A stretch of DNA of 64,000 nucleotides, taken from contig JBCFBD010000007.1 of the NCBI GenBank assembly GCA_038562455.1, forward strand, positions 405 through 64,404, written 5' to 3'. Below, in pieces: positions 1,964 through 55,526 of this stretch. The stretch's first letter is position 1, and each line of letters opens with the position of its first letter. The notes under the pieces are model-generated. The model was not told where the DNA came from. It saw only the letters and a program-made list of their open reading frames with translations, and did not search any database. A program made the translations under genes and the position numbers. Origin of the DNA: Anaerolineaceae bacterium. GTDB lineage: Bacteria > Chloroflexota > Anaerolineae > Anaerolineales > Anaerolineaceae.

Positions 1964-1991
1964 TTGACAATGAACAAATGTTCTATATAAT
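1964..1991 (+). promoter_or_regulatory. Near-consensus sigma-70-type promoter (TTGACA-16 nt-TATAAT) ending 6 nt before the ATG at 1998
   Basis: TTGACA at 1964-1969 and TATAAT at 1986-1991. The ATG at 1998 lies where a TSS is expected, so the mRNA may be leaderless. Confidence 0.5.
1972..1983. promoter_or_regulatory. LexA-type SOS (Cheo) box GAACAAATGTTC inside the promoter spacer
   Basis: Perfect palindromic GAAC-N4-GTTC. The extended sequence TGAACAAATGTTCT is close to the Gram-positive consensus CGAACN4GTTCG. Confidence 0.5.
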
Positions 1992-1997
1992 AAGATT

Positions 1998-2588
1998 ATG
2001 AAACATACATACATGGAAGGAAATGGTTTAACAAGTCCAGAAGTCGGGCTCCCGCGCGGACTGCTGGTGATCTTCGGCGAACACAGCGGGGCGGCGCGGA
2101 TGCTCGACCTGACTGCCGGGCTTTCCTTACGCGGGCCGCTATACCTGCTGGATTGCGGCAACCGCAGCAACATGTACCGGGTGGCGCGCACGCTGCGAAC
2201 ATTGACCGATGACCCGGTGGCGGTGATGCGCAATATCCGTCTTTCGCGTGCGTTTACCTGCTACCAGGTGGTCGCGCTGCTGGAAAAGGTGGCTGCCAGT
2301 CCTTCCGCACCGGTGCTGGTGCTGGATCTGCTCGACACGTTCATGGACGAAAGCGTGCAACTGCGTGAAAGCAGCCTGCTCTTTGATTCCACGCTGCAGC
2401 ACTTGCTGACAGTGGGGCAGACCGTACCCGTGGTGGTGAGCGCAAAGCCGCTCCTGACGCTTTCTGCGCCGCGCTTCGGGCTACTGGAGCAATTGAAAGC
2501 CGCCGCGGCTGAGGTGTGGGAGGAGACCGCTCTGTATCCTGCGCGTCCAGCGGCAAGCACGCAATTGCCTTTACTCCCTGATTATTGA
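1998..2588 (+). CDS. Hypothetical protein, possibly RecA-superfamily (ImuA/SulA-like) with a degenerate Walker A
   Basis: 196 aa. GLPRGLLVIFGEHSGAAR sits where G-P-G-x-ITEI-G-GxGK[ST] is found in RecA-like cores. A hydrophobic strand plus acidic residues (VLVLDLLDTFMDE) resembles Walker B. The gene is GC-rich and is followed by GAGGAGG, the RBS of the next gene. Confidence 0.4.
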   Translation: MKHTYMEGNGLTSPEVGLPRGLLVIFGEHSGAARMLDLTAGLSLRGPLYLLDCGNRSNMYRVARTLRTLTDDPVAVMRNIRLSRAFTCYQVVALLEKVAASPSAPVLVLDLLDTFMDESVQLRESSLLFDSTLQHLLTVGQTVPVVVSAKPLLTLSAPRFGLLEQLKAAAAEVWEETALYPARPAASTQLPLLPDY

Positions 2589-5300
2589 GGAGGTGCTATG
2601 GGTAGAACGATTCTTTCAGCGACGCAAACCTGGATGGAAGAGGATAAAGCCCTGCGGCGGTTTGTGCGCGCACTGCGCAAAGCTGACCAGGACCTGGTGC
2701 AGGAACTACTGGCGCTTTCACGGCGGCATATCGCCGAGGCTTCATACGCAAGCAACCTTTACCCCATGGATATTTACCTGATGTCGATGCTGCTGGAGAC
2801 CTTTCGCAAAGTGAAACAGCTCGAACGACAGTTGGAGGCGCTCGGGGTACAGCCGGAAGAACACACCACGCTTGATCCGGAGTTCCCGGAACTTCCTACG
2901 CTGGTGGAACTGATTTCACCGGCGCGGGAGGGGGCGCGCGTTGGGGAGCAGAAGCCTCCCGCGGGCGTGGAGTACGTGGACCTGCAGGACGGCGCCTGAC
3001 GATGACTGCGCGGTGGCGGGGTTGGCTGCTCGACCTCTACGAGGATGAAGCAGATGGACTACGAATGTGGTTCATCACCGAGGAGGATACGCGGGTATGC
3101 CTGCACCAGCCGCTAGAGGTGGTTTTCTACGCCAGTGGTGATCCTGCCCAGTTGCGTTCTCTATGGGTGACGCTGCGGCGCTACCCGGAAGTGCTTTCAC
3201 TGGCACGCGAGATGCGTCGCGATGCCTTCATGCCCGAGCCGGTCACCGTGCTCAAGGTGACGGTCGACAGCCCGCGCCATCAGTCGCGCATTTTCAGAGA
3301 GATCATGCAGCGTTACCCGCGCCTGGTCTATTATGACGCCGATCTTTCTTCCAATATCCGGCACGCGGCGCGGTATGGCACTTTCCCGATGGCTTTCTGC
3401 GATGTCGAACATGACGAGGCGGGGCGTATTCTCTCTTTGCAGGTGTTGAACTCGCGCTGGGACCTGGCGGCGGTGCACCCGGTTTTCCGCATACTTACCC
3501 TGGAACCGGATTGCGATCCGGGGCGGGGTGAACCCTCTGCGCTCAAGCTGCAGTTTGGTCGGCGCAAACAGACGCTCATGCTGCAACCGGCTGGCGAGTT
3601 GATCCGCAAATTGAATCAGGTACTGCAACAGGAGGACCCCGACTTTGTGTTGACCAGTTGGGGAGACACCTGGCTAATCCCCACACTGCTGGAACTGGCA
3701 AAACAGAGCGGCGAAAAATTGCTTTTCAACCGGGACGAGCAGCGGGAGGTCGCCTGGCAAAAGGAACTGTCGTATTTTTCCTACGGGCAGATCGTTTTTC
3801 GTCCGGAGGAGGCGCATTTGTTCGGCCGCTGCCACATCGACCAGAAAAGCGCGATGATGTGGCGGGATTACGGGCTGGATGGTGTGCTGGAATCCGCGCG
3901 GGTGACGACGCTGCCGATCGAAAATGCTGCCCGCGTGTCGCCGGGTTCCGGCATTTCCGCGATGCAGATGCTCACCGCCCTCGAGCTGGGCATTCTCGTG
4001 CCGTGGCATAAACAGCAGGTGGAAGTCTTCAAAGATGGCATCGACCTCATTCAACGCGACCGCGGCGGATTGATCTACCAGCCGCTCGTCGGGCTGCACG
4101 CCAACATCGCCCAGGTTGATTTCATCTCCATGTACCCGGCGATCATCATCAAGGGCAACATATCGCCTGAAGTGCCGCTACCGAATGGGATCATCCCTGC
4201 CAGTGAGGAATTGGGTGTGGTTCCCCTGACGCTCAAGCCGCTGTACGAGAAGCGTGTGGCGCTAAAACTACGCGGCGCGGGCAAAGCCAGGGATGACCGT
4301 CTGCTGCGGCGTGACAGCGCGCGTGCTTCTGCGCTGAAATGGCTGCTGGTGGTGTGCTTCGGTTTCCTGGGATACAAGAATGCCCGCTTTGGGCGCATCG
4401 AGGCGCACGAGGCGGTGACCAACGGCGGGCGCGAGGTATTGCTGCGGGCAAAAGAGGTGGCAGAATCAATGGGGTGCGAAGTGTTGCACATGTACGTGGA
4501 TGCCCTGTGGCTCAAGCGCCCGGGTTGTACCCGCAAAGAGGATTTTCAGGATGTGCTGGACGAGATCTCGCTGCAAACCGGTCTGGGCGTATCTCTGGAC
4601 GGCATCTACCGGTGGGTGGCTTTTTTGCCTTCGCGCATGGACGAGCGGGTGCCGGTTGCGAACCGCTATTTCGGGGTCTTCCAGGATGGGTCGATGAAGG
4701 TACGCGGTATCGAGGCCCGGCGGCGGGATACCCCCCCATGGATCGCCGAGACGCAGATAAAAATGCTTGAGCGGCTGAGCCGTGCCGGCAGCGTAAAGGA
4801 CCTGCCGGGCAGCCTGGAGATGGCTTTCGAGATCTTCCAGAAAGCATTGGCAGACCTACGGGCAGGCAAGGTGCCGTTGGAAAAACTGGTGGTGACCTCC
4901 CGGGTCAGCCATGAGTTGGAGGCCTATCGCTCGCCGACCCCTGCCGCGCGCGCCGCACTGCAGATTCATGCACAAACCGGTAAGCAGGCACGCCCCGGGC
5001 AGAAAGTGCGCTTTCTCTACACGCGGGGCGAGAGCGATGTGCGCGCGTGGGAATTACCGGGAAAAATCAACCCGAACGATGTAGACAGAGTAAAATATAC
5101 CGAGTTACTCGCGCGCGCAGCCGCCAGCGTGTTTCATCCATTCGGCATTCGTGATGCGCAATTGAAGGAATGGGCGCACACACAATCACTGGCGTTGGAA
5201 TTTGGGTTTGAGCAGGAGGTGCCGCATGTGCGGAAGGTTCGCCATCATGTTCGATCCGGAAGAGCTGGGGCAGAAGTTGGAGTTGGGGGATCTGCCACCT
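2035..5300. other. Compositional (GC-rich) island relative to the flanks
   Basis: Hand counts of G+C per 60 nt. Inside the island: 2041-2100 = 43, 3481-3540 = 37, 4321-4380 = 33. In the flanks: 1921-1980 = 21, 5881-5940 = 25. Confidence 0.6.
2598..2999 (+). CDS. Hypothetical small helical protein
   Basis: 133 aa with a GAGGAGG RBS 6 nt upstream. The stop lies 2 nt before the polB-like ATG. No family recognised. Confidence 0.55.
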   Translation: MGRTILSATQTWMEEDKALRRFVRALRKADQDLVQELLALSRRHIAEASYASNLYPMDIYLMSMLLETFRKVKQLERQLEALGVQPEEHTTLDPEFPELPTLVELISPAREGARVGEQKPPAGVEYVDLQDGA

Positions 5301-5302
5301 GA
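3002..5302 (+). CDS. Family-B DNA polymerase homolog with degenerate exonuclease and polymerase motifs
   Basis: 766 aa. Motif A is DFISMYPAII (about 4118). Motif B-like is KWLLVVCFGFLGY (4337). The motif C position reads YVDALW (4493-4510). ANRY (4658) sits where KKRY is expected. GIEARRRD and an archaeal/Pol II-like N-terminus (GWLLDLY) are also present. Confidence 0.8.
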   Translation: MTARWRGWLLDLYEDEADGLRMWFITEEDTRVCLHQPLEVVFYASGDPAQLRSLWVTLRRYPEVLSLAREMRRDAFMPEPVTVLKVTVDSPRHQSRIFREIMQRYPRLVYYDADLSSNIRHAARYGTFPMAFCDVEHDEAGRILSLQVLNSRWDLAAVHPVFRILTLEPDCDPGRGEPSALKLQFGRRKQTLMLQPAGELIRKLNQVLQQEDPDFVLTSWGDTWLIPTLLELAKQSGEKLLFNRDEQREVAWQKELSYFSYGQIVFRPEEAHLFGRCHIDQKSAMMWRDYGLDGVLESARVTTLPIENAARVSPGSGISAMQMLTALELGILVPWHKQQVEVFKDGIDLIQRDRGGLIYQPLVGLHANIAQVDFISMYPAIIIKGNISPEVPLPNGIIPASEELGVVPLTLKPLYEKRVALKLRGAGKARDDRLLRRDSARASALKWLLVVCFGFLGYKNARFGRIEAHEAVTNGGREVLLRAKEVAESMGCEVLHMYVDALWLKRPGCTRKEDFQDVLDEISLQTGLGVSLDGIYRWVAFLPSRMDERVPVANRYFGVFQDGSMKVRGIEARRRDTPPWIAETQIKMLERLSRAGSVKDLPGSLEMAFEIFQKALADLRAGKVPLEKLVVTSRVSHELEAYRSPTPAARAALQIHAQTGKQARPGQKVRFLYTRGESDVRAWELPGKINPNDVDRVKYTELLARAAASVFHPFGIRDAQLKEWAHTQSLALEFGFEQEVPHVRKVRHHVRSGRAGAEVGVGGSAT

Positions 5303-5840
5303 CCTGAAATCGAACAGCAATATCTCTCCCGGAACGAATATTCCTGTCGTGTTGGATGCCGTAGACCGAAATGTGAAGATGTTTCGCTGGGGGTTGATCC
5401 CCGGCTGGGCGAAGGATGTTTCTGTGGGATACAAGATGATCAACGCGCGTGCAGAAACAATTGATGAAAAGCCGTCATTTCGCGTAGCTTTTCAACGCCG
5501 GCGCTGCCTGATTCCGGCAGATGGATTTTACGAGTGGAAAATCGAGGATGGGCATAAATATCCTTATTTGTTCACTCTTAAAGATAGAAAGCCATTCACG
5601 TTTGCAGGGTTGTGGGAAACCTGGCGCAGCCAGGAGGGCGGCGAGATCAACAGTTGCACAATCATTACGACGGAGCCGAATAGCCTGGTCGCGCAATACC
5701 ATAACCGTATGCCAGTAATCTTGGGGTACGAGAACCGTTGGCGCTGGCTGGAAGAAAGAACAAAGGAAGAACTCAAGGCGATGCTGATTCCTTGTCAGAG
5801 CGGGATCATGGATATTCCTCAACAGGTCAATCGTCTATAA
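5226..5840 (+). CDS. SOS response-associated peptidase (SRAP/YedK family, abasic-site processing protein)
   Basis: Start set at MCGRF (Cys2 is the catalytic residue in this family). NARAE, GFYEW and YHNRMPVIL are present. It overlaps the polB-like 3' end by 77 nt in another frame. Confidence 0.85.
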   Translation: MCGRFAIMFDPEELGQKLELGDLPPDLKSNSNISPGTNIPVVLDAVDRNVKMFRWGLIPGWAKDVSVGYKMINARAETIDEKPSFRVAFQRRRCLIPADGFYEWKIEDGHKYPYLFTLKDRKPFTFAGLWETWRSQEGGEINSCTIITTEPNSLVAQYHNRMPVILGYENRWRWLEERTKEELKAMLIPCQSGIMDIPQQVNRL

Positions 5841-24141: not shown

Positions 24142-26619
24142 TCATTCGCGCATTGAGAATTCATGAAAAGCGCGGGATGCGATCTCCCTTAATGGATTGT
24201 CGATCGCGACCAGGTGTTTAATCTTTGAAACAACTGTTGTATTCGGGCGCACGAGCAGATATTGCAGCGCCATCAGGGATTCGGCAATTTTCTCACTTTC
24301 CAATATGGAAAACAATAGTTCATATGGGTAATCGTTGGCAGGGATGCCGACACCTCTTTTCACCGCTGCATTTACTAACAAGGGATTATCGACGAGCCTG
24401 ATCAGTCGCTGTGGTGTGTAAATCTCAGGAGTATATTTGTCATGGAGTGCTTGCGCTGCGGCATCACGGAGTATCCATGCTGAGTCGGTACGGCTAATTT
24501 CGTCAAGCATAGTGGTCGCCCATTTGTCAACAGTCAAGCGCAAGCCATAAATTGAAAATCTGCGCAGCGTGGCATTTTCCTGGTGCGCCAATTGACGAAT
24601 CAACTGATGCCCGGTATTTGGATATTGAGAACTCAATTCAGAGATGATACGACCGTAACGCTCAGGATCTGACTCGATCACCTCAAGAAGCAGTTGAGCT
24701 GCCCGGGGGTCAGATGAGATCAACAGGGAAAGAAACCCGAAAAGCGCAACTGTGACTTGCGAATCCTCCAAGATATTAATCAGGAAGGATTCATGCTGCT
24801 TTAGGGGTAAGAATGAGTAGAAGAACGCGCAAATTTTGCGGCAATCCTTGCCGGGGAGTGTTTCGAGTTTGCCTAATAACTGCGAAAATAATACGGGGTT
24901 CGCATAGTTGATAATGGTTGCGAATTTTATCTTGGATGAAAGTGGTAATTGTTCTGAGACGATATATTTGGCGAGTTTCGGGAAGGTCGTGCTGAGCGCA
25001 GCCGGTTGGGCGCGTTTTGAAAACATGTGGCTCAAAATGATGGAAAGGCTTCTCCCATCATAAGGATCAAGTGCCTCGAGCCATTTTACAACGTATTCTG
25101 AGTGCGTTGCTGATAACTTTGTTGCCTGGTCATCAATCGCAGAATGGATGAGAGTGTGAATGTCTCGCTCGGATGTATGGGTGTCGGATTGGGCGAGAAG
25201 GCGTACCAATATTGATGAGTTTGTGAATCGTAGCTGGTCTGCAGTTTGTGATAAAACGTGACACTCAATTAACCAGTTAAGCGTTTCCGTTGGACTTCCA
25301 ACCTTGGATTCTGGCAGAGTGGAGAATAAATTCTGGGCATCATGTAGACTGGAACTGAAATTCCCTTGGCTCGAGAAGAGTTGCGCGAGTCGAGTCAGGT
25401 AATTGTAAGGGATTTTGTCTTCAGTCTTTCTCTGCAGGTAGGGTACGATAGTTTGACTACCGGGTATGTAATCCCGGAACAATACTGACATGACAGTGAA
25501 AGTGAAATCGGCATAAGTTGGGTGGACATTGTCCTGGTTCATCCATAAGGTGATCAGGTCGATTACCTGAGAACCGCTTGGTCCGGCAGCGAACGAGGGA
25601 TTGACACTCTGCCATACCTTGAGCCATGCAGAGAGGCCTTGCCGAAATTCATTTTGACCGGGAGGGATGATTGGCAGAATCGAGAAGCCAGCTGCGTCCA
25701 ACCTTCCTGAATAGTAAGGTCCGCATGTAGTGACCATCAACACTCGCGGGTTTTCTTTATGCAGCCGTTGGAGCAATGTAACAGCCAAGTTGAATTCTGC
25801 CTGACGCAATTCATCCAAACCGTCAACAAGAAGCAGTAACTGAGATTGGCCGAGGTTCTCAGAAAGCGATTTAGCGATTTCAGGAGGAGGGAAGTCAAGT
25901 CCCTCGTCATAAAGGCAGCGGGAAAGGCAATCTAAAAGAGGTAAGTTACTATAAGGCGATAAATGGGTAATATGGAAAAAGAGCGGCAGGTAATCATTCA
26001 AGTTGGTGTCGGCACAGCGTTTTTCAAGTACTTCAGAGGCTAAGTTGGCAAGGCAGGTGGTTTTTCCTGCACCGATCCCGCCTGAGAGAGCTATATTGCG
26101 ACGACCGGATAGTGCTTGAGAGAGTGTAAGTTTTGGCAGGGGAAGTTCACAGGCTAATTCTGGAACATCCATAACCGATAACGCTTCCAGGAAGAAAATT
26201 GGCTCTTCCTCAGGGAGTATTGCGACGTTGGCATGCAAAGGATGACTATAAAGAAACTGAGGAACATAAATATCATTCAGGCTGCAAAGTTCTGGCCCCA
26301 GATGTTGCATTTGCACTTTCTTGAGCATGTGCTTGCGTAATAAAGTAAACGTGTCTGAGGAATCCATTTTCTGTATTTTTTGAATCTGATTTGCCGGTTT
26401 GAGCTTTTTTATCAATACAGGAATATATTTAATTAATAGTACTGTAACTACGATACCTAGAATAATTCCTAATATGATTGAGAGCAGGTCAACTGTATTT
26501 GTCAAGGCGGTTTTCTCGATCAATCTGCGTAGAGTATCCTGCCACACGAAGGGCAGAAGAACAACACTGATGGGGATTTTGCAAATTGGCATTGTGAGGG
26601 GGTGAGGCTGGTGCCGCAT
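24142..26619 (-). CDS. Membrane-anchored NACHT/STAND-type P-loop NTPase with C-terminal HEAT-like repeats
   Basis: One N-terminal TM. Walker A is GGIGAGKTT and Walker B is LLLLVDGLDEL. The helical repeat tail includes ATLRRFSIYGL and ILRDAAAQAL. The start is uncertain; a TTG at about 26523 overlapping the upstream TGA is an alternative. Confidence 0.6.
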   Translation of the reverse strand: MRHQPHPLTMPICKIPISVVLLPFVWQDTLRRLIEKTALTNTVDLLSIILGIILGIVVTVLLIKYIPVLIKKLKPANQIQKIQKMDSSDTFTLLRKHMLKKVQMQHLGPELCSLNDIYVPQFLYSHPLHANVAILPEEEPIFFLEALSVMDVPELACELPLPKLTLSQALSGRRNIALSGGIGAGKTTCLANLASEVLEKRCADTNLNDYLPLFFHITHLSPYSNLPLLDCLSRCLYDEGLDFPPPEIAKSLSENLGQSQLLLLVDGLDELRQAEFNLAVTLLQRLHKENPRVLMVTTCGPYYSGRLDAAGFSILPIIPPGQNEFRQGLSAWLKVWQSVNPSFAAGPSGSQVIDLITLWMNQDNVHPTYADFTFTVMSVLFRDYIPGSQTIVPYLQRKTEDKIPYNYLTRLAQLFSSQGNFSSSLHDAQNLFSTLPESKVGSPTETLNWLIECHVLSQTADQLRFTNSSILVRLLAQSDTHTSERDIHTLIHSAIDDQATKLSATHSEYVVKWLEALDPYDGRSLSIILSHMFSKRAQPAALSTTFPKLAKYIVSEQLPLSSKIKFATIINYANPVLFSQLLGKLETLPGKDCRKICAFFYSFLPLKQHESFLINILEDSQVTVALFGFLSLLISSDPRAAQLLLEVIESDPERYGRIISELSSQYPNTGHQLIRQLAHQENATLRRFSIYGLRLTVDKWATTMLDEISRTDSAWILRDAAAQALHDKYTPEIYTPQRLIRLVDNPLLVNAAVKRGVGIPANDYPYELLFSILESEKIAESLMALQYLLVRPNTTVVSKIKHLVAIDNPLREIASRAFHEFSMRE

Positions 26620-27224
26620 AAGGTGCAGGTTTGGTCATCCACTTTACCAACCGCCACCCCACCTTTACGTGAACGAAGGTCTTCGTATTGCTGAAGTATC
26701 GGTTCTGGAACCTGGATAGCAAGCAATTTATGCTCTGTGACCAGCCTGGTTTTTTCTTGTACGAGCGCATCGGCTTGAGCAGTTAGATCAATGTTGGCTT
26801 GCTGGTTAACCTCTTTTGCTTGTTCAACTTTTTGTTCAAATGAGTGCCAGATCATTTCTTTTTCCTCCACTTCGAGCATGGAGTTCATTTGCTCCTCTTC
26901 CATCAAGGCAATGGCAGCCTTAATAGACGCAATCTCCTTTTGCAGATCCTGAAGTTCTTTCGGGTTTTTGATCATCCCTCCATACAGGGCGGATTCAGAT
27001 TGTTCCAATTTATTACGCCGGTCGAGGATTCGTAATTCGATAGTTTGAAGTGCAGATGACGCAATATCAAGCTCACGCTTAGCTGCTTCAAGTTTGGAGC
27101 GCACCGCAATCAATACGGGATCATTCTCCAATAAGCGGGAAATCTCTTTTGTCCGGCTGTCAATCGCAGCCAGCCTGGAATCGATTTTCTGTAGTTGATA
27201 TAAGTGAAATGGCGTATTCATCAC
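26520..27224 (-). CDS. COG1579/DUF164 coiled-coil protein with a C4 zinc ribbon
   Basis: 234 aa with a long coiled coil, then CTLCG...CPSCGRILY. Confidence 0.75.
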   Translation of the reverse strand: MMNTPFHLYQLQKIDSRLAAIDSRTKEISRLLENDPVLIAVRSKLEAAKRELDIASSALQTIELRILDRRNKLEQSESALYGGMIKNPKELQDLQKEIASIKAAIALMEEEQMNSMLEVEEKEMIWHSFEQKVEQAKEVNQQANIDLTAQADALVQEKTRLVTEHKLLAIQVPEPILQQYEDLRSRKGGVAVGKVDDQTCTLCGTSLTPSQCQFAKSPSVLFFCPSCGRILYAD

Positions 27225-27244
27225 GCATCCTCTGCATGCCTATT

Positions 27245-27277
27245 ATATATAAAAACGGGAAGGCATTCACCTTCCCG
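27245..27277 (-). terminator. Rho-independent terminator after the PHP-AlbA_2 gene
   Basis: Hairpin CGGGAAGG-6 nt-CCTTCCCG (27256-27277), followed on the minus strand by TTTTTATATAT. Confidence 0.6.
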
Positions 27278-27298
27278 GGGGCAACGAATTACAGGAGT

Positions 27299-29050
27299 TT
27301 ATTCCACCAGGTCTTCATCGCGTAAGAAGGTTTTCCAGACGCCGTGGATGCCATCGACGGTGACGCCAAAGAAATATCGATCTCCCTCGGGCGTGCGCAG
27401 GATCAGGTCATACAGGTGATTCTTGCCCTGTTGGTATTGCCTGATCAGACCATAATCACCGTGCCAGGTTATGCCAATCGTATCAATTTGCGGGATGATC
27501 TCGTTGTATCGTGTGATTGCGTAGTGCCACAAGCGCCGGGCTGAAGCTACAGTTACGTTCTTTACGAGGTTGCCATTTCGTAGATCGCGCATGGTAAAAA
27601 AGCTTTTACCACCGCGCAGTACTGGGGGAATTACCTCTACACCGGTGCGCGGAGCCACATTTTCATCGGCACTCTCTTCACTGCTGGGCAGGGGTGGCGG
27701 GAGATTCGGCTCAACCTGTGGAACCGGTGCAACAGAAGTGGCTGAACTTCTCAACACGAGCGTCACAATCTCATCCCGAACAGCAAGGTTGGTTTCATCT
27801 TCATCTCGGATAAAGATCTTGTTTTCATCGAGCGCATATGGGGTCTCGTCGCCGCGCGGGATCAGGACGCGAATCACTGACACGCCCTTGTAGGTTTGGG
27901 TGTCGAGTGTAAGGTGGACAGGCGGACTGATTCGGTTCTGTACCTCTTTTTCAAGCTGCTTGATGGCTTGATCAGGGGTATTAATCCCTGTTGGTGGTTT
28001 CTGCACATCTGCAGAAAGACCGATAAAGAGTGTGCCGCCATTGGTATTGGAGAACGCACAAATATCAGCGAGGACTCCATAGAGATTGCCGCCTCTTACG
28101 TTGAGATTTTCATGAAAATCCTGAATAATGTTCCTGCCCTCATCACGGGCAGTTTGGATGAAGTCAACTGCGGGTTCCTGCGTCTGGCGATGGGGCTTGG
28201 TCCGCGAAAAGTCGTTGGATTGAAACAATTCATACAACGCATCGAAGCTGAGCTCATCCAGCAGGACATCAGTTGTACGATCACCAACGCCTGGATTCTT
28301 CTTTCTAACCGGGTCAGTGGACAATCGGTGGCTGTCTGAACCCTGGATACAATGCATGCGTCTTGGATATTCAGGCTTAGTACCGTTGAAAAATGCCGCC
28401 GTAGTGCGTGGTCCTTTCTGTTCGAGGTCGGTGACTTCAAGGGCGTGCAGCTGTTTATCCTGGGTGTATGCGATGCGAGTTTGTCCGCCAAAGTTAATAC
28501 CGCGCATGGCTACGCCGTTACTCGAGTTGGCGTGTGCAGCTATGACAATACCGCCGGCATCGTGGATGATCTTGTAAGCAGACAGAACATCCACAGAAGC
28601 GCCGATGGCAGGGTTGCCTTCTTCAAGGCTGCCAGCTGGAATGCCCAAATTGATAAGAACGTGTTCGATTTCACGTACAGTTTTTTCAGGAGAAAACAGA
28701 CCGATAATATGAAAACCAAAAGTAGCAGTAAATTCAATACCGGGTAAGACTAAAATCTTTTTCAATAACCGGCGATATTCGTCCAGGCGGGTCTTTTCTT
28801 CAGGCAGCAGGCGGCCCAACTTTTCCAGCATCTCCAACTGGTCGATATTCTCTCGCAGGCGTCGGTAACCCGCGACTGTATTGTGATCGGTGAAAGCGAT
28901 AATATCCAATCCCCGAGATTCGGCTTTGCGCAGGATATCCAGGTTGGTGACATCCGGTTGTTGAAAATCCAACGAAGCCGGCGTGTGCAGGTGAATATCC
29001 ATTGTGTACCATTGTCGTTGGGTTTTCTTGTGAAAATTTTTTGATCTCAT
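27299..29050 (-). CDS. PHP-domain phosphoesterase fused to an AlbA_2 (Schlafen-like) domain and an unknown C-terminal domain
   Basis: PHP motifs: DIHLHTP, FTDHN, IAAHAN, GSDSH. AlbA_2-like segment: ICAFSNTNGGTLFIGL...VIRVLIPRG...IFIRDEDET. Start trimmed to ATG 29050 (or 29002) because the longer ORF runs into the tRNA. Confidence 0.6.
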   Translation of the reverse strand: MRSKNFHKKTQRQWYTMDIHLHTPASLDFQQPDVTNLDILRKAESRGLDIIAFTDHNTVAGYRRLRENIDQLEMLEKLGRLLPEEKTRLDEYRRLLKKILVLPGIEFTATFGFHIIGLFSPEKTVREIEHVLINLGIPAGSLEEGNPAIGASVDVLSAYKIIHDAGGIVIAAHANSSNGVAMRGINFGGQTRIAYTQDKQLHALEVTDLEQKGPRTTAAFFNGTKPEYPRRMHCIQGSDSHRLSTDPVRKKNPGVGDRTTDVLLDELSFDALYELFQSNDFSRTKPHRQTQEPAVDFIQTARDEGRNIIQDFHENLNVRGGNLYGVLADICAFSNTNGGTLFIGLSADVQKPPTGINTPDQAIKQLEKEVQNRISPPVHLTLDTQTYKGVSVIRVLIPRGDETPYALDENKIFIRDEDETNLAVRDEIVTLVLRSSATSVAPVPQVEPNLPPPLPSSEESADENVAPRTGVEVIPPVLRGGKSFFTMRDLRNGNLVKNVTVASARRLWHYAITRYNEIIPQIDTIGITWHGDYGLIRQYQQGKNHLYDLILRTPEGDRYFFGVTVDGIHGVWKTFLRDEDLVE

Positions 29051-29086
29051 AGATACAACTTTCTCTAACAAATGCTTAAATGCCAG

Positions 29087-29159
29087 CGCCCTCGGTGGGA
29101 GTCGAACCCACAACCATCGGATTAGAAGTCCGGTGCTCTGTCCATTGAGCTACGAGGGC
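29087..29159 (-). tRNA. tRNA-Arg (anticodon TCT)
   Basis: Reverse complement: acceptor GCCCTCG/CGAGGGC, anticodon loop CTTCTAA, T-arm GTGGG-TTCGACT-CCCAC. No CCA is encoded. Confidence 0.9.
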
Positions 29160-42018: not shown

Positions 42019-42684
42019 GTGACAAGGATAGCGATCATCGGAGGTACGGGCAAAGAAGGGAAGGGGTTGGCGTATCGATGGGCATTAGCTGGGCATGATG
42101 TGATCATCGGTTCGCGCAATATTGAAAAAGCGCAACTGGCTGCTGACGAAGTAAACTCGGCACTACCGGAGAACGCCATCAAGGTAGGGGGCTTGGGGAA
42201 TATCCAGGCGGCAGATTGGTGTGAAATCGTAACCTTAACCGTGCCATTTTCTGCTCATATTTCCATGCTCGAGTATCTAAAAGAGGTGGTCAGAGGGAAG
42301 ATCTTGATCGATGTGACCGTGCCGATCGTGCCACCAAAAGTGACGATCGCTCAAATGCCCGAGGCTGGCAGCGCTGGCAAGGAAGCACAAAAAGTGCTGG
42401 GTGAAGATACCCCGGTGGTAATCGCTTTCCAGAATATTTCTTACGAAAGATTGATGAAAGACGAAGATATTGATTGCGATGTGTTCGTATGTGGCACGTC
42501 AAAAGAAGCACGCGATGTTGTGATAGGCCTAGTGGAAGATGCTGGGATGGTCGGCTGGGATGCAGGCCCCATGGGTAACGCCATGGTGATCGAAGGATTG
42601 ACCTCTGTACTCTTATATATCAATAAAAGATATGGTAGTTCAGAATCAGGGGTAAAGGTAACTGGTGTGAGTAAAAGGATGTAA
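42019..42684 (+). CDS. npdG: NADPH-dependent F420 reductase
   Basis: 221 aa. IAIIGGTGKEGKGLAYRWALAGHDVIIGSR is present. Confidence 0.8.
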   Translation: MTRIAIIGGTGKEGKGLAYRWALAGHDVIIGSRNIEKAQLAADEVNSALPENAIKVGGLGNIQAADWCEIVTLTVPFSAHISMLEYLKEVVRGKILIDVTVPIVPPKVTIAQMPEAGSAGKEAQKVLGEDTPVVIAFQNISYERLMKDEDIDCDVFVCGTSKEARDVVIGLVEDAGMVGWDAGPMGNAMVIEGLTSVLLYINKRYGSSESGVKVTGVSKRM

Positions 42685-43455
42685 GTGAAAAGACAGCTCA
42701 CTCTCATTCCTTTAATTGGTATGCCCGATTTCAAAGCCGGTGACAAGGTCATTGAAATAATTATTAATCATGCGCGTAGAGAAAAAATACCAATTAAGCA
42801 TGACGATATTATTGTTATCACCCAAAAAATAATATCCAAATCGGAATCTCGATTGTTTGATTTACGCTCTGTTACGGCTTCGTCCCGTGCAGAGGAATTG
42901 GGAACCATAACAGGTAAGGATGCGCGTTTAATTCAACTTATCCTGAATGAAAGCCAGGAGGTATTGAGAGCACATCAGGGGCTGATCATCGTCAGACATA
43001 GATTGGGCTTCGTGTGCGCCAACGCCGGGATTGATCACTCGAACACCATTCCAGGGGAAGAGTCTGACAATTTTGTCCTGCTCTTGCCTCTGGATCCTGA
43101 CAAGTCCGCACAGAAAATTCAGAGGGAATTTTTCGAGCTTACCGGCTTGCAGGTGGGCGTACTGATCATCGATTCACACGGTAGGGCATGGCGCAACGGC
43201 ACTATCGGTACGACAATCGGAATGGCGGGTGTGCCAGGAGTGGTGGATCTGCGAGGTAAAAAGGACTTATATGGCTATACATTAAAAGCCACTCAGGTTG
43301 CAGCGGCTGACGAACTTGCAGCAGCTGCGTCGCTTGTAATGGGCCAGGCAGATGAATCCATCCCTTGCGTAATAGCGAGGGGATTTCCTTATGCCTTGCG
43401 AGAATCAAATCTGAAAGAACTAATTCGGTCTGAAGACCACGATTTGTTCAGATAA
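42685..43455 (+). CDS. cofE: Coenzyme F420-0:L-glutamate ligase (single-domain CofE)
   Basis: 256 aa. ITQKIISKSE, CANAGID and IDSHGRAWRNG are present. There is no C-terminal nitroreductase-like domain. Confidence 0.85.
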   Translation: MKRQLTLIPLIGMPDFKAGDKVIEIIINHARREKIPIKHDDIIVITQKIISKSESRLFDLRSVTASSRAEELGTITGKDARLIQLILNESQEVLRAHQGLIIVRHRLGFVCANAGIDHSNTIPGEESDNFVLLLPLDPDKSAQKIQREFFELTGLQVGVLIIDSHGRAWRNGTIGTTIGMAGVPGVVDLRGKKDLYGYTLKATQVAAADELAAAASLVMGQADESIPCVIARGFPYALRESNLKELIRSEDHDLFR

Positions 43456-43472
43456 TTGAAAACCCCAAACGC

Positions 43473-44414
43473 ATGAAATCGATGAAGATCACAGCATTAG
43501 CCGGAGGTGTGGGAGGCGCAAGACTCGCTAACGGCCTGTCGAAATTACTCGAGCCTGGTAATTTCAGTGTTATCGTCAATACAGGTGACGATTTTTTCTA
43601 TTCGGGCTTGTATATTTGCCCGGACCTGGATACCGTCACATACACGCTGGCCGGGATCAGCGACCCGGTAAATGGTTGGGGTATAGCTGACGATAGCTGG
43701 CATGTCTTGACCGCATTGGAACAGATCGGTCATCCGGTCTGGTTTCGCCTGGGCGATCGCGATCTCGCTACACATATCGAAAGAACGAGACTCCTGCAAT
43801 CAGGCGTGTTATTGTCAGAGGTCACAGCAGCGATATCCCAACGATTGGGTGTCCAGCATACCATCCTGCCCATGACCAATACTTCTGTGCGAACGCTGGT
43901 TGAAACAGATGAGTTAGGCATCCTGTCATTTCAGGAGTATTTCGTAAAGCACAAATTCCAACCTACAGTGCGGTCAATCCAATTTGCAGGTATTCGGGAA
44001 GCTGCTATTCCACCTTCCGTTACAAATGCGCTTGAGTCTGCAGATCTTATTGTGATCTGCCCTTCCAATCCATTCGTGAGCATCGACCCGATTCTTTCCA
44101 TACCCGGTATGCGTAACTTGGTCAGGCAAAAAAATGTGATCGCTGTGAGCCCTTTAATCGGTGGAAAGGCCCTCAAAGGTCCAGCAGCTAAATTGATGCA
44201 GGAAATGAACCTCGAACCCAGCGCGTGCAACATTGCAAAACACTATGGAGACCTATTGAACGGCTTTGTGCTTGACCAGATGGATATGGAAGATGCCGAG
44301 CCCATCAGGCAATGCGGTATAATTCCATTGGAAACCGATATACTGATGACCGGTATGGAAGGGCAAGCCCGATTGGCTCGGGAAGTCATCGAGTTTGGTG
44401 AAACTTTGCTCTAA
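43473..44414 (+). CDS. cofD: 2-phospho-L-lactate transferase
   Basis: 313 aa. LAGGVGGARL, NTGDDF and ICPSNPFVSI are present. Confidence 0.9.
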   Translation: MKSMKITALAGGVGGARLANGLSKLLEPGNFSVIVNTGDDFFYSGLYICPDLDTVTYTLAGISDPVNGWGIADDSWHVLTALEQIGHPVWFRLGDRDLATHIERTRLLQSGVLLSEVTAAISQRLGVQHTILPMTNTSVRTLVETDELGILSFQEYFVKHKFQPTVRSIQFAGIREAAIPPSVTNALESADLIVICPSNPFVSIDPILSIPGMRNLVRQKNVIAVSPLIGGKALKGPAAKLMQEMNLEPSACNIAKHYGDLLNGFVLDQMDMEDAEPIRQCGIIPLETDILMTGMEGQARLAREVIEFGETLL

Positions 44415-44417
44415 AGG

Positions 44418-45044
44418 ATGGAAAAAATGCCATTATGGGCAATCGTTCCGGTAAAACCGCTGCGCAGAGGCAAATCACGCTTATCACCGGTTTTATCAGA
44501 GGATGAACGAACCGCATTAAACCAGACTCTTCTCACCAATACTTTAAAAATTCTCTCATCAGTTCCACAGATCGACAGGATTATGGTTGTGAGCCGTGAC
44601 CCGGCCGCACTGACGCTGGCAAGAGATTTTGGCGCACGAACTGTGCTTGAAAATGGCAACCCGGAATTGAATACTGCCTTGAGGCGTGCTTCAATGGTCG
44701 CGAAAACGCACCTGGCAAATGAAATTTTGATCATACCCGCCGATTTACCACTCATCTCCAAGTTCGAAATTGAGGCGTTTCTCAAACGCTCAGGGAATCC
44801 ACCAGAGATCATCATCTCGCCTGACCGTCGCAGGGATGGAACCAATATGCTATATATCAATCCTGCCGGATTGATCCAATTTCATTATGGGACAGGTTCA
44901 TTTCAGAAACACATGGCAGAAGCCGAAACCAGCGGCGCCCGCATTGAAATCGTCGAATCCACCAGCCTAGGACTGGACCTCGACATCCCAGAGGATCTTG
45001 AAATCCTTCAGCAATTGCAGCAGCAGGAACTCAAACCATCTTAA
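44418..45044 (+). CDS. cofC: F420 biosynthesis guanylyltransferase (CofC/FbiD)
   Basis: 208 aa. WAIVPVKPLRRGKSRL and DLPL are present. Confidence 0.8.
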   Translation: MEKMPLWAIVPVKPLRRGKSRLSPVLSEDERTALNQTLLTNTLKILSSVPQIDRIMVVSRDPAALTLARDFGARTVLENGNPELNTALRRASMVAKTHLANEILIIPADLPLISKFEIEAFLKRSGNPPEIIISPDRRRDGTNMLYINPAGLIQFHYGTGSFQKHMAEAETSGARIEIVESTSLGLDLDIPEDLEILQQLQQQELKPS

Positions 45045-53000: not shown

Positions 53001-55526
53001 CTATTCCTGCAGGTATTTTATCAGTTGTTGGGTTTCTTTTTTACCGCCGCCAGCCAGGTCAACTGAAGGGCCTACGCAGGATGGACAACCTTCGCTGCAT
53101 TCACAGGTTTTCACCAGTCCGCCAGCCTGCAGCAGCAGATCATCAAAATGATTGAACAAATACTCCGTCAAGCCAATGCCCGCCGGCACGTTGTCATAAA
53201 ATATAATGGCAGGTTGGTTCTCTGCGAAACGGGCGGCGGGGTCAAAGAAACTGCCCAGGTCGCCACTGTCACTCATTACCATCAACGGCGCAAGTGATTC
53301 CAGCAGATGGTGCAATCCGGATAGCGCGCTCCTGACCCTTACCTGGTTTTCCACCAATGCGTGACAATCTACGCAGAGTGTCACCAGGTTGCTGGCAGCG
53401 TTCGCCTTTTCAATCGAAGTGAATGACTTGAAGGGGATTTTATGGTGTACGTGATGTGCACTGACGGTTTCTTTTTTACCGCAGACCTGGCAGGTAAAAT
53501 CGTCGCGCAGACGTATACGGTCACGGATAACTGTCCAATCACGACCGTAGTTGTTCGGGTCGCTGCGCCATAAGCCATCGTGGCGCATCTTGTCCACGCA
53601 TTCAGGTTTGACCACCATCCAGAAGGCTACAGTGCGCAGGTCGGTGGCGGGCAGATCCAAATCGGTCACGTCCAGCACCTCCCTGGTTGTCCAGTGAATA
53701 CGTTTATACCCGGTCACCTTGCTTGTTACCACCACCTCACCATGATTAAGGATGTAATTGCCATGCTCAAGGGTCCCGTTGAGAGAAAGTATTTCCACTT
53801 CAGTGTTCAGGATCGGCTCCGTGATGTAATCACCAGCAAAAAAAGACAGATTTGCAGCACTTTTTTCTAGGTCCAGCTCCTCCACACGGTAGGTCTCTCC
53901 ATCGTGAATGTAGACTGCGCCGGGGTGAACCATCCACAATCCGCTCGTATAATCAACCTCTCCAATGACCTTCACATCACCCAAGAGATTATGGGCACGC
54001 AACAAGATTGATCCTGAAGAAGCACTGCGTAAAGAAATGTGCTGCGTGGGATAATCGTTAGAAACCCAGTGATATTTACCATTTTTATGGAACAATAACG
54101 CAGCTTCGGTCAGATAATCTAGATATTGGCGTAAGGTCTCCGGTTCAAGATTGCCAAAATGCTCGTTTTCCTCAATGGGACCTTCCGCCGCCGCTGCTTG
54201 GAGGTGCTCGATCAGTATGAGGGGATTATCCGGATTGATCAATGCCTCTTCCGGGTTACGCGAAAGCAGATATTGAGGATTGCGCGCCAGAAACTGGTCG
54301 AGTGGATTCATAGAAGCAATAAATACAGCAAGCGAAGGATTGAACTTGCGGCCGGCTCTGCCTGCGCGTTGAACAAGCCCAGAGATGGTGCCCGGATAAC
54401 CGGGGAGAAGGACAGCGTCCACGCCCCCAATATCCACGCCCAATTCAAGCGCATTGGTGGCGATGCCAATCTTGATCTCTCCTCTTTTCAACCCCTCTTC
54501 AATCTCCCGCCGTTCACCGCGCAAATATCCGCTGCGGTAACCTCGAACTTTGGTCTGTGGGATGCGCAAGACAGCGCGCGTGTCGCGCAGTAGGATTTCC
54601 ACAAACCTGCGCGTACGGCAGAAGACCAGCGTTTGAATGCCTCTTTGATAAAGCAGCGCTAATAATTTGCCAGTGGTGGGGAGCAATCCCTCCCGAATGC
54701 CAAATTCCTCGTTGATCATCGGCGGGTTGTAAATCATGAAATACTTTTGACCTTGCGGAGAACCGTCTCTACTGACGATGGAGACCTCCTGCTGTATGAG
54801 CTGGCGCGCATGCTGTAGCGGATTGTGAATGGTCGCGGAGGTCATGATAAAGACCGGTTTTGCACCATAGAAACGGGTGATGCGCAGCAGCCGGCGCATC
54901 AAGTTCGCGACGTGTGAGCCAAAAATGCCGCGGTAGATATGAATTTCGTCGATCACAACGTATTTTAAGTTGCGAAAGAATCTCTCCCATATCGGGTTGT
55001 GAGGTAGGATGCCGATGTTCAGCATGTCTGGATTGGTGAGAAGTATGTTGGCTTTATCTCTGATCGATGAGCGGTCCTTCTGCGGGGTATCGCCATCGTA
55101 GATCGCCGGACGCACTAGGGCGCGAAGTTCCTGTGGAATCAAGTCATACAGACTGTTCAATTGATCATTCGTCAACGCCTTGGTTGGAAAGATCATCAGC
55201 GCGGTGCTGTCGGTATCTCCGCATATTGCGTTCAGGATCGGCAGTTGGTAACACAGGCTCTTGCCACTAGAGGTTCCGGTGGAAATCACGAAACTCGTGT
55301 TTTCCTTCGCCAGATTGATCGCTTCAGCCTGGTGAGAATACAAGCGGTCAATTCCTTTTTTGAGCAAGGAATCACGAACGAACGGATTCAAGTCAGTCGG
55401 AAGTTCCTCAAATTTCGCTTTCCGCGCATCGGTGATGTGCAGGTGAGCGATATTCTCCCCAAAATTTTGGTCAGTGGTGAAAGCATTAATTAGAGAATTG
55501 ATAGGCGAATCATCTGAGGTGGGCAT
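53001..55526 (-). CDS. DEAD/DEAH-box helicase with a C-terminal DUF1998/MZB domain (YprA/MrfA-like) and an HNH-like insert
   Basis: GTSSGKS (Walker A), DEIH, QRAGRAGR and the terminal CECSEGCPSC. The HNH-like segment is CQVCG...HHVHHKIPF...NLVTLCVDCH (about 53361-53492). Confidence 0.8.
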   Translation of the reverse strand: MPTSDDSPINSLINAFTTDQNFGENIAHLHITDARKAKFEELPTDLNPFVRDSLLKKGIDRLYSHQAEAINLAKENTSFVISTGTSSGKSLCYQLPILNAICGDTDSTALMIFPTKALTNDQLNSLYDLIPQELRALVRPAIYDGDTPQKDRSSIRDKANILLTNPDMLNIGILPHNPIWERFFRNLKYVVIDEIHIYRGIFGSHVANLMRRLLRITRFYGAKPVFIMTSATIHNPLQHARQLIQQEVSIVSRDGSPQGQKYFMIYNPPMINEEFGIREGLLPTTGKLLALLYQRGIQTLVFCRTRRFVEILLRDTRAVLRIPQTKVRGYRSGYLRGERREIEEGLKRGEIKIGIATNALELGVDIGGVDAVLLPGYPGTISGLVQRAGRAGRKFNPSLAVFIASMNPLDQFLARNPQYLLSRNPEEALINPDNPLILIEHLQAAAAEGPIEENEHFGNLEPETLRQYLDYLTEAALLFHKNGKYHWVSNDYPTQHISLRSASSGSILLRAHNLLGDVKVIGEVDYTSGLWMVHPGAVYIHDGETYRVEELDLEKSAANLSFFAGDYITEPILNTEVEILSLNGTLEHGNYILNHGEVVVTSKVTGYKRIHWTTREVLDVTDLDLPATDLRTVAFWMVVKPECVDKMRHDGLWRSDPNNYGRDWTVIRDRIRLRDDFTCQVCGKKETVSAHHVHHKIPFKSFTSIEKANAASNLVTLCVDCHALVENQVRVRSALSGLHHLLESLAPLMVMSDSGDLGSFFDPAARFAENQPAIIFYDNVPAGIGLTEYLFNHFDDLLLQAGGLVKTCECSEGCPSCVGPSVDLAGGGKKETQQLIKYLQE

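Follow-up and report, generated by a model that had tools for sequence, protein, structure and literature searches.

The stretch of DNA analysed here, called the window, comprises 64,000 nucleotides (nt) of an Anaerolineaceae bacterium of the phylum Chloroflexota (assembly GCA_038562455.1, contig JBCFBD010000007.1, positions 405 to 64,404, forward strand). Its list of open reading frames (ORFs) confirms four co-directional genes, with products of 196, 133, 766 and 204 amino acids (aa), which had been marked in an initial annotation made from the letters alone. The first and second genes are separated by 9 nt and the second and third by 2 nt, and the fourth begins within the third (Table 1). 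The cassette encodes a recombinase-fold protein with a dead ATPase, a small helical protein, a family B DNA polymerase without a working exonuclease and a SRAP protein, and it stands behind a promoter which carries a LexA-type box in its spacer. The region is very probably a chromosomal Anaerolineaceae copy of the bacterial PolB2 mutasome operon, iRadA-PPB2-PolB2, with a SRAP gene attached at its 3' end.

Table 1. Genes and motifs of the PolB2 operon region, in window coordinates (columns: feature, position, strand, evidence).
Sigma-70 type promoter, TTGACA-16 nt-TATAAT	1964..1991	+	12/12 hexamer matches
Cheo-type LexA box GAACAAATGTTC (GAAC-N4-GTTC), within promoter spacer	1972..1983	.	conserved placement; LexA binding predicted
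iRadA, inactivated RadA/Rad51-like protein without N-terminal domain and Walker A lysine	1998..2588	+	fold matches, motifs
Beta-clamp-binding-type motif QLPLL, iRadA residues 189-193	2562..2576	+	homologue conservation
PPB2 (arCOG07300 family), small three-helix PolB2 partner with MGRT arm and C-terminal extension	2598..2999	+	
PolB2, family B DNA polymerase with dead exonuclease domain and Tyr-Val-Asp motif C	3002..5302	+	Pfam, NCBIfam, profile alignment
D353-R354-G-G, D(K/R) loop motif of PolB2	4058..4069	+	aligns to ADRGG of haloarchaeal PolB2
Polymerase motif A DFISMYP, D373 kept	4118..4138	+	pairs with DFSSMYP of 5mdn
Polymerase motif C H496-M-Y498-V-D500-A	4487..4504	+	pairs with YGDTDS in profile alignment to 5mdn
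SRAP (PF02586; YedK/HMCES family), N-terminal Cys2	5226..5840	+	Pfam SRAP 2.5e-68, residues 1-201 of 204

This system is already known. The three linked genes were reported in bacteria, sometimes with lexA in the operon, by Makarova, Krupovic and Koonin in 2014 (PMC4104785), and they were characterised computationally by Timinskas, Timinskas and Venclovas in 2025 (PMC11791011). In the latter account, PolB2 is an archaeal family B polymerase transferred once to bacteria, iRadA is a homologue of RadA whose ATPase site is dead, and PPB2 is a small three-helix protein formerly known as arCOG07300. The bacterial gene order is solely iRadA-PPB2-PolB2, and lexA, SRAP and DUF72 genes are enriched nearby (PMC11791011). 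PPB2 was described with an N-terminal MGRT arm and PolB2 with a D(K/R) loop motif, which touches that arm in the published model; beta-clamp motifs occur at the C-terminus of iRadA or of PolB2, rarely of both, and mostly in iRadA (PMC11791011). AlphaFold models of 40 archaeal and bacterial sets yielded a confident PolB2:iRadA:PPB2x3 complex (PMC11791011). The supplementary table of the same paper lists Chloroflexota/Anaerolineaceae operons as 'iRadA PPB2 PolB2 SRAP', with the motif C string HMYVDALWL (class YVD) and with QLPLL at position 188 of iRadA, and gives no PolB2 clamp motif for near-identical operons; the HMYVDALWL and QLPLL strings of the window are identical to those tabulated. PolB2 is also handled as an established group in a 2026 survey of bacterial polymerases (PMC12926913).

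The suggestion of the initial annotation that such a cassette was undescribed thus falls, since the operon was reported in 2014 and modelled in 2025 and its SRAP-bearing four-gene Anaerolineaceae form was tabulated. A new class of bacterial mutasome would have mattered, but the class is on record. The additions made here are the promoter-operator, the predicted leaderless start, the 65-143 nt overlap of SRAP with PolB2 and the excess of guanine plus cytosine at third codon positions (GC3). The publication of 2025, a gene-level paper, makes no mention of a promoter, SOS box, operator or leaderless start (PMC11791011).

That the third gene belongs to family B, as first annotated, is borne out by its match to Pfam DNA_pol_B (1.7e-24). 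Among NCBIfam models, NF004416 (9e-113) and NF004418 (5e-95) matched it far better than other archaeal PolB models (1e-37 or weaker) and than those of DNA polymerase II (Pol II), which stand at 1e-13 or weaker and score 25-51 bits against cut-offs of 570-1435. The initial annotation had allowed that the protein might prove an ordinary Pol II with intact catalytic residues; this is not so. For the archaeal comparison, the N-terminal 399 residues of a haloarchaeal (Natrialba) PolB2 were taken from the table of PMC11791011. PolB2 residues 199-391 of the window, over which solved canonical PolBs align poorly, are 33% identical to that protein (E 1e-30), with RDRGG paired to ADRGG, and in the motif B-C stretch identity is 33/61 to the Natrialba PolB2 vs 22/61 to canonical PolB. 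The window polymerase is thus nearer to archaeal PolB2 than to other family B groups, as judged by model scores and pairwise identity.

Catalytic residues were examined in a profile of 14 homologues aligned to solved PolBs (including 5mdn and KOD). Motif A is intact, with D373, S376, M377, Y378 and P379 invariant among these homologues. In motif C a Tyr stands in place of the first Asp only, whereas the second Asp, D500, is kept and invariant; the earlier pairing of YVDALW with YGDTDS was two residues out of register. The comparative set for the operon consisted of 80 genome loci encoding PolB2 relatives, nearly all labelled Anaerolineaceae or other Chloroflexota, cultured Flexilinea flocculi (L029) among them. 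A [YF]VD motif C occurs in 71 of these 80 loci, and the DRGG of the D(K/R) motif, in the loop preceding the palm's GG...P segment, in every one. At the KKRY position the protein reads ANRY (Lys to Asn), just as read by hand before, and the Asn of motif B is replaced by Val. Loss of the 3'-5' exonuclease active site was upheld for Exo I, whose DxE has no counterpart, and for Exo II, whose Asp (KOD D215) aligns to L225; Exo III, also said to be lost, was unalignable.

These substitutions and losses invite the reading of the initial annotation, in which the PolB homologue is dead and fills the slot of an ImuB-like scaffold: together with the RecA-like protein it would recruit DnaE, DnaE2 or DinB from elsewhere to the clamp. 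The position of the clamp motif, on an accessory protein and not on the polymerase, would suit such a scaffold, and the activity of bacterial PolB2 is expected by analogy only; yet the Asp of motif A and the second Asp of motif C (D373 and D500) are invariant in the homologues examined, and the operon has no ImuB, DnaE2 or Y-family gene linked to it in the window. Moreover, archaeal PolB2 has the same substitutions. Dpo2 of Sulfolobus, a PolB2 with IID for DxD, is presented in PMC8764526 and PMC11791011 as a robust polymerase which extends mismatched or lesion-paired ends, does so without proofreading, and is needed for targeted mutagenesis. A scaffold role is accordingly improbable. Because archaeal PolB2 with a like substitution is an active translesion extender, the window PolB2 is probably, by analogy, the catalytic subunit itself, and so the absence of DnaE2 needs no explaining.

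The first gene product, of 196 aa, models as the ATPase core of RadA/Rad51, without N-terminal domain or ATPase residues. Its AlphaFold model (predicted local distance difference test, pLDDT, 80; predicted template modelling score, pTM, 0.77) gave 50 top PDB fold matches that are all RadA, Rad51, DMC1 or Rad51 paralogues (including 2zub), at E ~1e-7 and probability 1.00; RecA is absent from these 50 best matches. The RecA/ImuA/SulA-type core first assigned to it must thus be replaced by an archaeal/eukaryotic RadA/Rad51 one. The broken P-loop was read correctly: the position reads GEHSGAAR, and the Walker A lysine is missing in 21/21 homologues. No Pfam or NCBIfam model matched iRadA. At its C-terminus lies the putative clamp-binding motif QLPLL, of which Q189 is invariant and L192 nearly so among the 21 homologues, and a QxxLF-like motif occurs within the last 22 residues of iRadA in 72 of 75 loci.

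The second gene, whose ATG has a GGAGG 6 nt upstream, encodes PPB2. The N-terminus of the protein, MGRTILSATQTW, is invariant in 20 homologues, and the MGRT start is found in 74/75 loci. A profile search of 1.84 billion representatives returned 402 relatives, most of them of 80-130 aa and matching from residue 1; of the 150 best family representatives, 104 start with MGRT. Helices are predicted at residues 4-27, 31-51 and 56-81 in a low-confidence AlphaFold model (pLDDT 57), in keeping with a small three-helix protein with an N-terminal MGRT arm. PPB2 had no Pfam or NCBIfam match, and a fold search with this poor monomer model returned nothing usable. The poor model fits the published stability of PPB2 as a trimer only, though it is no test of it. 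Apparent fusions among the relatives, of iRadA with PPB2 (P0500) and of PPB2 with PolB2 (P0495), fit a physical interaction among the partners.

The window PPB2 is about 45 residues longer than the usual members of 80-95 aa. The extension (residues ~85-133, window 2850-2996) is variable save for its acidic end, EYVDLQDGA, and Tyr126 is invariant in 20 homologues. Several PPB2 homologues (P0241, P0248, P0265 and P0304) bear, in one source, the name 'aryl-alcohol dehydrogenase-like predicted oxidoreductase' or 'predicted dehydrogenase', apparently by misannotation. All listed PPB2 homologues carry the precomputed Pfam label PF26485.

A survey of gene neighbourhoods, as the initial annotation had proposed, found iRadA, PPB2 and PolB2 adjacent and in that order in every related locus of the 80 genomes with enough upstream DNA. 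The three core genes thus always co-occur in these related bacteria, and their order is constant.

The region upstream of iRadA contains one strong promoter-like site only, that of Table 1, and the promoter with a GAAC-N4-GTTC box in its spacer was recognised correctly from the start. The arrangement TTGAC[AGT]-N16/17-TATAAT occurs in 71 of 74 orthologous upstream regions. The aligned regions share CTTGACA-tAGAACAaaTgTTCTATATAAT-N6-ATG, and the DNA farther upstream is unalignable. GAACAAATGTTC is the sole exact GAAC-N4-GTTC in the 64 kb window. By itself it is not significant, at least one such box being present in 58/100 shuffles of the window. Its placement in the promoter spacer is strongly conserved: of 73 related loci, 44 have an exact box just upstream of the iRadA homologue, and a further 24 have one with a single mismatch. 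The 952 kb of these loci contain only 50 exact boxes in all, and 44 of them are at the iRadA promoter position. The consensus box of the loci is an extended palindrome, AGAAC-N4-GTTCT. A GAAC-N4-GTTC palindrome overlapping the promoter is the mark of the LexA regulon in Cheo-box bacteria, and control of the operon by LexA and DNA damage is predicted from this conserved element.

Two metagenomic PolB2 operons that are more distant from that of the window, L083:3200-4600 and L166:450-1060 (both on the minus strand), share the same placing of the box in the promoter. The PolB2 of the former is 47% identical to that of the window, and the iRadA proteins are 36% (L083) and 41% (L166) identical. In L083 a gene for a 139-aa GerE/LuxR-type regulator comes first, before iRadA. 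A scan of metagenomes for the exact 14-mer AGAACAAATGTTCT located 120 places, roughly 90 of them intergenic-like. Genes beside these sites include lexA, recA, uvrB and Y-family polymerases, and also many unrelated genes and some eukaryotic DNA, so the scan lends generic support only.

The ATG of iRadA follows the -10 hexamer by 6 nt. Exactly this distance separates the hexamer from the first in-frame start codon in 59 of 74 sequences, and in seven more the distance is 8 nt. Neither a 5' leader nor a Shine-Dalgarno site would fit into such a space, and a leaderless iRadA mRNA starting at the ATG is therefore predicted from the promoter-ATG geometry. Taken together, the cassette is a multi-protein one of mutasome type, probably SOS-controlled; in these respects the initial annotation was on target, and it erred in the kinship of the parts, which are homologous to the archaeal PolB2 operon and not to imuA-imuB-dnaE2.

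An alternative function was raised by the authors of the 2014 report, namely that the complex is not a translesion polymerase but a regulator of replication or a restarter of stalled forks, with iRadA and PPB2 as functional core (PMC4104785). iRadA-PPB2 pairs without PolB2 do exist in some haloarchaea, and archaeal operons stand beside orc1/cdc6 (PMC4104785), but in the bacteria compared here the three genes are always together and the operon bears an SOS-type operator. Sulfolobus genetics likewise link PolB2 to damage tolerance and mutagenesis (PMC11791011). A role in replication or restart is thus highly improbable for this operon, and a translesion polymerase complex is preferred.

The fourth gene encodes an intact SRAP protein, as had been stated at first; the domain is full-length, and the catalytic Cys comes directly after the initiator Met (MCGRF). 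Proteins of this family shield abasic sites in single-stranded DNA covalently. The gene starts 77 nt within the 3' end of PolB2. In all 29 SRAP-bearing sequences (28 loci and the window) the start lies inside PolB2, by 65-143 nt and at a constant frame offset, and in 28 of them the protein begins MCGR[FY]. An AGGAGG stands 6 nt upstream of the SRAP ATG in the window, and an AGGAGG-like site is usual in the SRAP-bearing loci. SRAP follows PolB2 only in the clade of the window (PolB2 identity at least 59%), and none occurs within 6 kb in the other loci.

Relatives that lack SRAP have PolB2 proteins shorter by about 30 residues, and the extra tail in the SRAP-bearing clade looks like a by-product of the SRAP overlap. 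In one SRAP-less locus (L038:8233-8970, minus strand) a gene convergent on PolB2 starts IGTSGWVYRHW and looks like one for a DUF72 protein.

It may be proposed, tentatively and with no great likelihood, that in this clade of Anaerolineaceae SRAP is more than a neighbour and is coupled in function to the PolB2 mutasome, its start being embedded in the PolB2 coding end in a fixed frame. SRAP would capture abasic sites in single-stranded template DNA, and the PolB2 complex, free of proofreading, would extend past the adduct, the whole unit being expressed from one leaderless transcript under direct LexA repression. If true, this would constitute a dedicated abasic-site tolerance pathway, for which the papers found report no test in any organism.

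In the clade of the window the operon is found at a single syntenic position, Dus / operon / GlpD, Ndk, TPR protein, RpoD, which persists between genomes with as little as 56-75% identity in their flanking proteins. The operon is thus vertically inherited among these diverged genomes. Its base composition is unusual. The guanine-plus-cytosine (GC) content of the three-gene block is 0.598 vs 0.478 in the rest of the window, with flanks at ~0.47 and SRAP at ~0.50. GC3 is 0.68-0.72 in the three core genes vs 0.42-0.58 in nine other genes of the window, SRAP being host-like at 0.57. The GC of the operon exceeds that of its flanks in 69 of 71 loci, by a mean of 8 points, so the excess is an old property and not that of a fresh insertion; recent horizontal acquisition was considered as its cause and rejected on the synteny kept among diverged genomes. 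That a GC3 excess should last in an operon passed on vertically is an oddity. The reading of the block as a mobile or viral replication module of recent acquisition, foreign to host repair, has next to no probability, for although it is GC-rich and mobile elements often carry family B polymerases, the kept slot, the presence of the excess in nearly all loci and the lack of any adjoining integrase, repeat or transposase speak against it. The only locus with an operon GC far below that of its flanks (0.445 vs 0.645), L026, may represent either a chimeric contig or a genuine transfer into a host rich in GC.

A working scheme can be drawn for the operon. LexA bound to the GAAC-N4-GTTC box, between the -35 and -10 hexamers, would block RNA polymerase. 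After DNA damage, cleavage of LexA would allow synthesis of a single leaderless mRNA, which from the promoter geometry should start at or next to the iRadA ATG. PPB2, PolB2 and SRAP would be translated from the internal Shine-Dalgarno sites seen in the sequence or by coupling. PolB2, catalytic and devoid of proofreading, would join one iRadA and a PPB2 trimer in a heteropentamer, as in the published AlphaFold models; in these, the MGRT arm of PPB2 is inserted close to the active site, and iRadA is bound by a PolB2 loop that has DRGG at its end, in the manner of contacts between RadA subunits. QLPLL at the C-terminus of iRadA would tether the complex to the beta clamp, and the complex, by analogy with Sulfolobus Dpo2, would extend mismatched or lesion-paired primer ends in translesion synthesis. 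At the same stalled forks SRAP may covalently shield abasic sites in single-stranded DNA.

Several points weigh against this scheme. The architecture of the complex comes from published models only, and the monomer model of the window PPB2 reached a pLDDT of 57. SRAP is missing from the operon in about two-thirds of related genomes and is therefore an accessory, not a core part. Neither Pfam scans of 20 window ORFs nor a search for the signature G[DNESQ]SM detected a lexA within the 64 kb, and binding of LexA to this box in Anaerolineae is predicted from the Gram-positive-type box on which LexA of Chloroflexi reportedly acts in Dehalococcoides. The profile hidden Markov model of iRadA gave no significant match among PDB sequences (best RadA E 0.99), so that the link to RadA is structural only; this agrees with the remark that some iRadA groups are recognisable only by HHpred-level methods (PMC4104785). 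Finally, the literature found includes no biochemical or genetic study of bacterial PolB2, whose activity is extrapolated from Sulfolobus.

The Anaerolineaceae operons, including that of the cultured F. flocculi, have a clean and conserved promoter-operator, which makes their SOS control directly testable. The predicted leaderless start and the embedded SRAP gene likewise lead to hypotheses on expression of the module and on cooperation between shielding and extension.

Other genes of the window deserve brief mention. Adjoining genes on the minus strand (24142-29113) encode a NACHT-domain protein (825 aa) and a Schlafen/AlbA_2-domain protein (604 aa), a pair which is possibly an anti-phage defence locus. 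Also on the minus strand (53001-55526) is a gene whose product, a DEAD-box helicase, ends in an MrfA zinc-binding domain and contains an HNH nuclease domain as an insertion; it is an unusually built DNA repair helicase of MrfA-like type. F420-related domains at 42019-45044 (F420-dependent NADP oxidoreductase, CofC-like guanylyltransferase) suggest biosynthesis of cofactor F420 in this Anaerolineaceae genome.

Among known systems, Pol II of E. coli resembles the window system in having a family B polymerase and a beta-clamp motif, and in SOS induction and extender behaviour, both of which are predicted for the window. It differs as a single-subunit enzyme with an intact DEDDy exonuclease and a DTD motif C, features that the window protein does not share. 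The ImuA-ImuB-DnaE2 system is likewise an SOS-linked, multi-protein mutagenesis module with an ATPase-compromised recombinase-fold protein and a clamp-binding accessory subunit, but its parts are non-homologous, ImuB being an inactive Y-family protein and DnaE2 a C-family polymerase; Pfam and NCBIfam scans found no Y-family or C-family domain in the cassette. In the window, unlike in that system, catalysis is probably the task of the polymerase-fold protein itself, and the protein with the recombinase fold resembles RadA and not RecA.

The likeness to E. coli Pol V (UmuD'2C-RecA) lies in architecture: a polymerase binds a recombinase-family protein via an oligomerisation motif of filament type, a small subunit extends its N-terminal arm to the active site, the clamp is used and control is by the SOS response (PMC11791011). 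Pol V differs in its Y-family catalyst, in having a UmuD' dimer instead of a PPB2 trimer, and in employing active RecA instead of a dedicated inactive paralogue. The Dpo2 system of Sulfolobus islandicus is closer, with homologous proteins in a three-gene operon, a replaced first Asp of DxD, no proofreading, a D(K/R) motif and damage-inducible expression, the last being predicted from the box in the window. It differs in the order PPB2-PolB2-iRadA, in a motif IID rather than YVD and in clamp motifs of the PCNA type; archaeal operons, moreover, adjoin orc1/cdc6 and bacterial ones lexA. With the bacterial iRadA-PPB2-PolB2 operon (PMC4104785, PMC11791011) the window agrees without substantive difference: gene order, YVD motif C, dead exonuclease, iRadA clamp motif and MGRT arm all match, at the gene level on which the published account was made.

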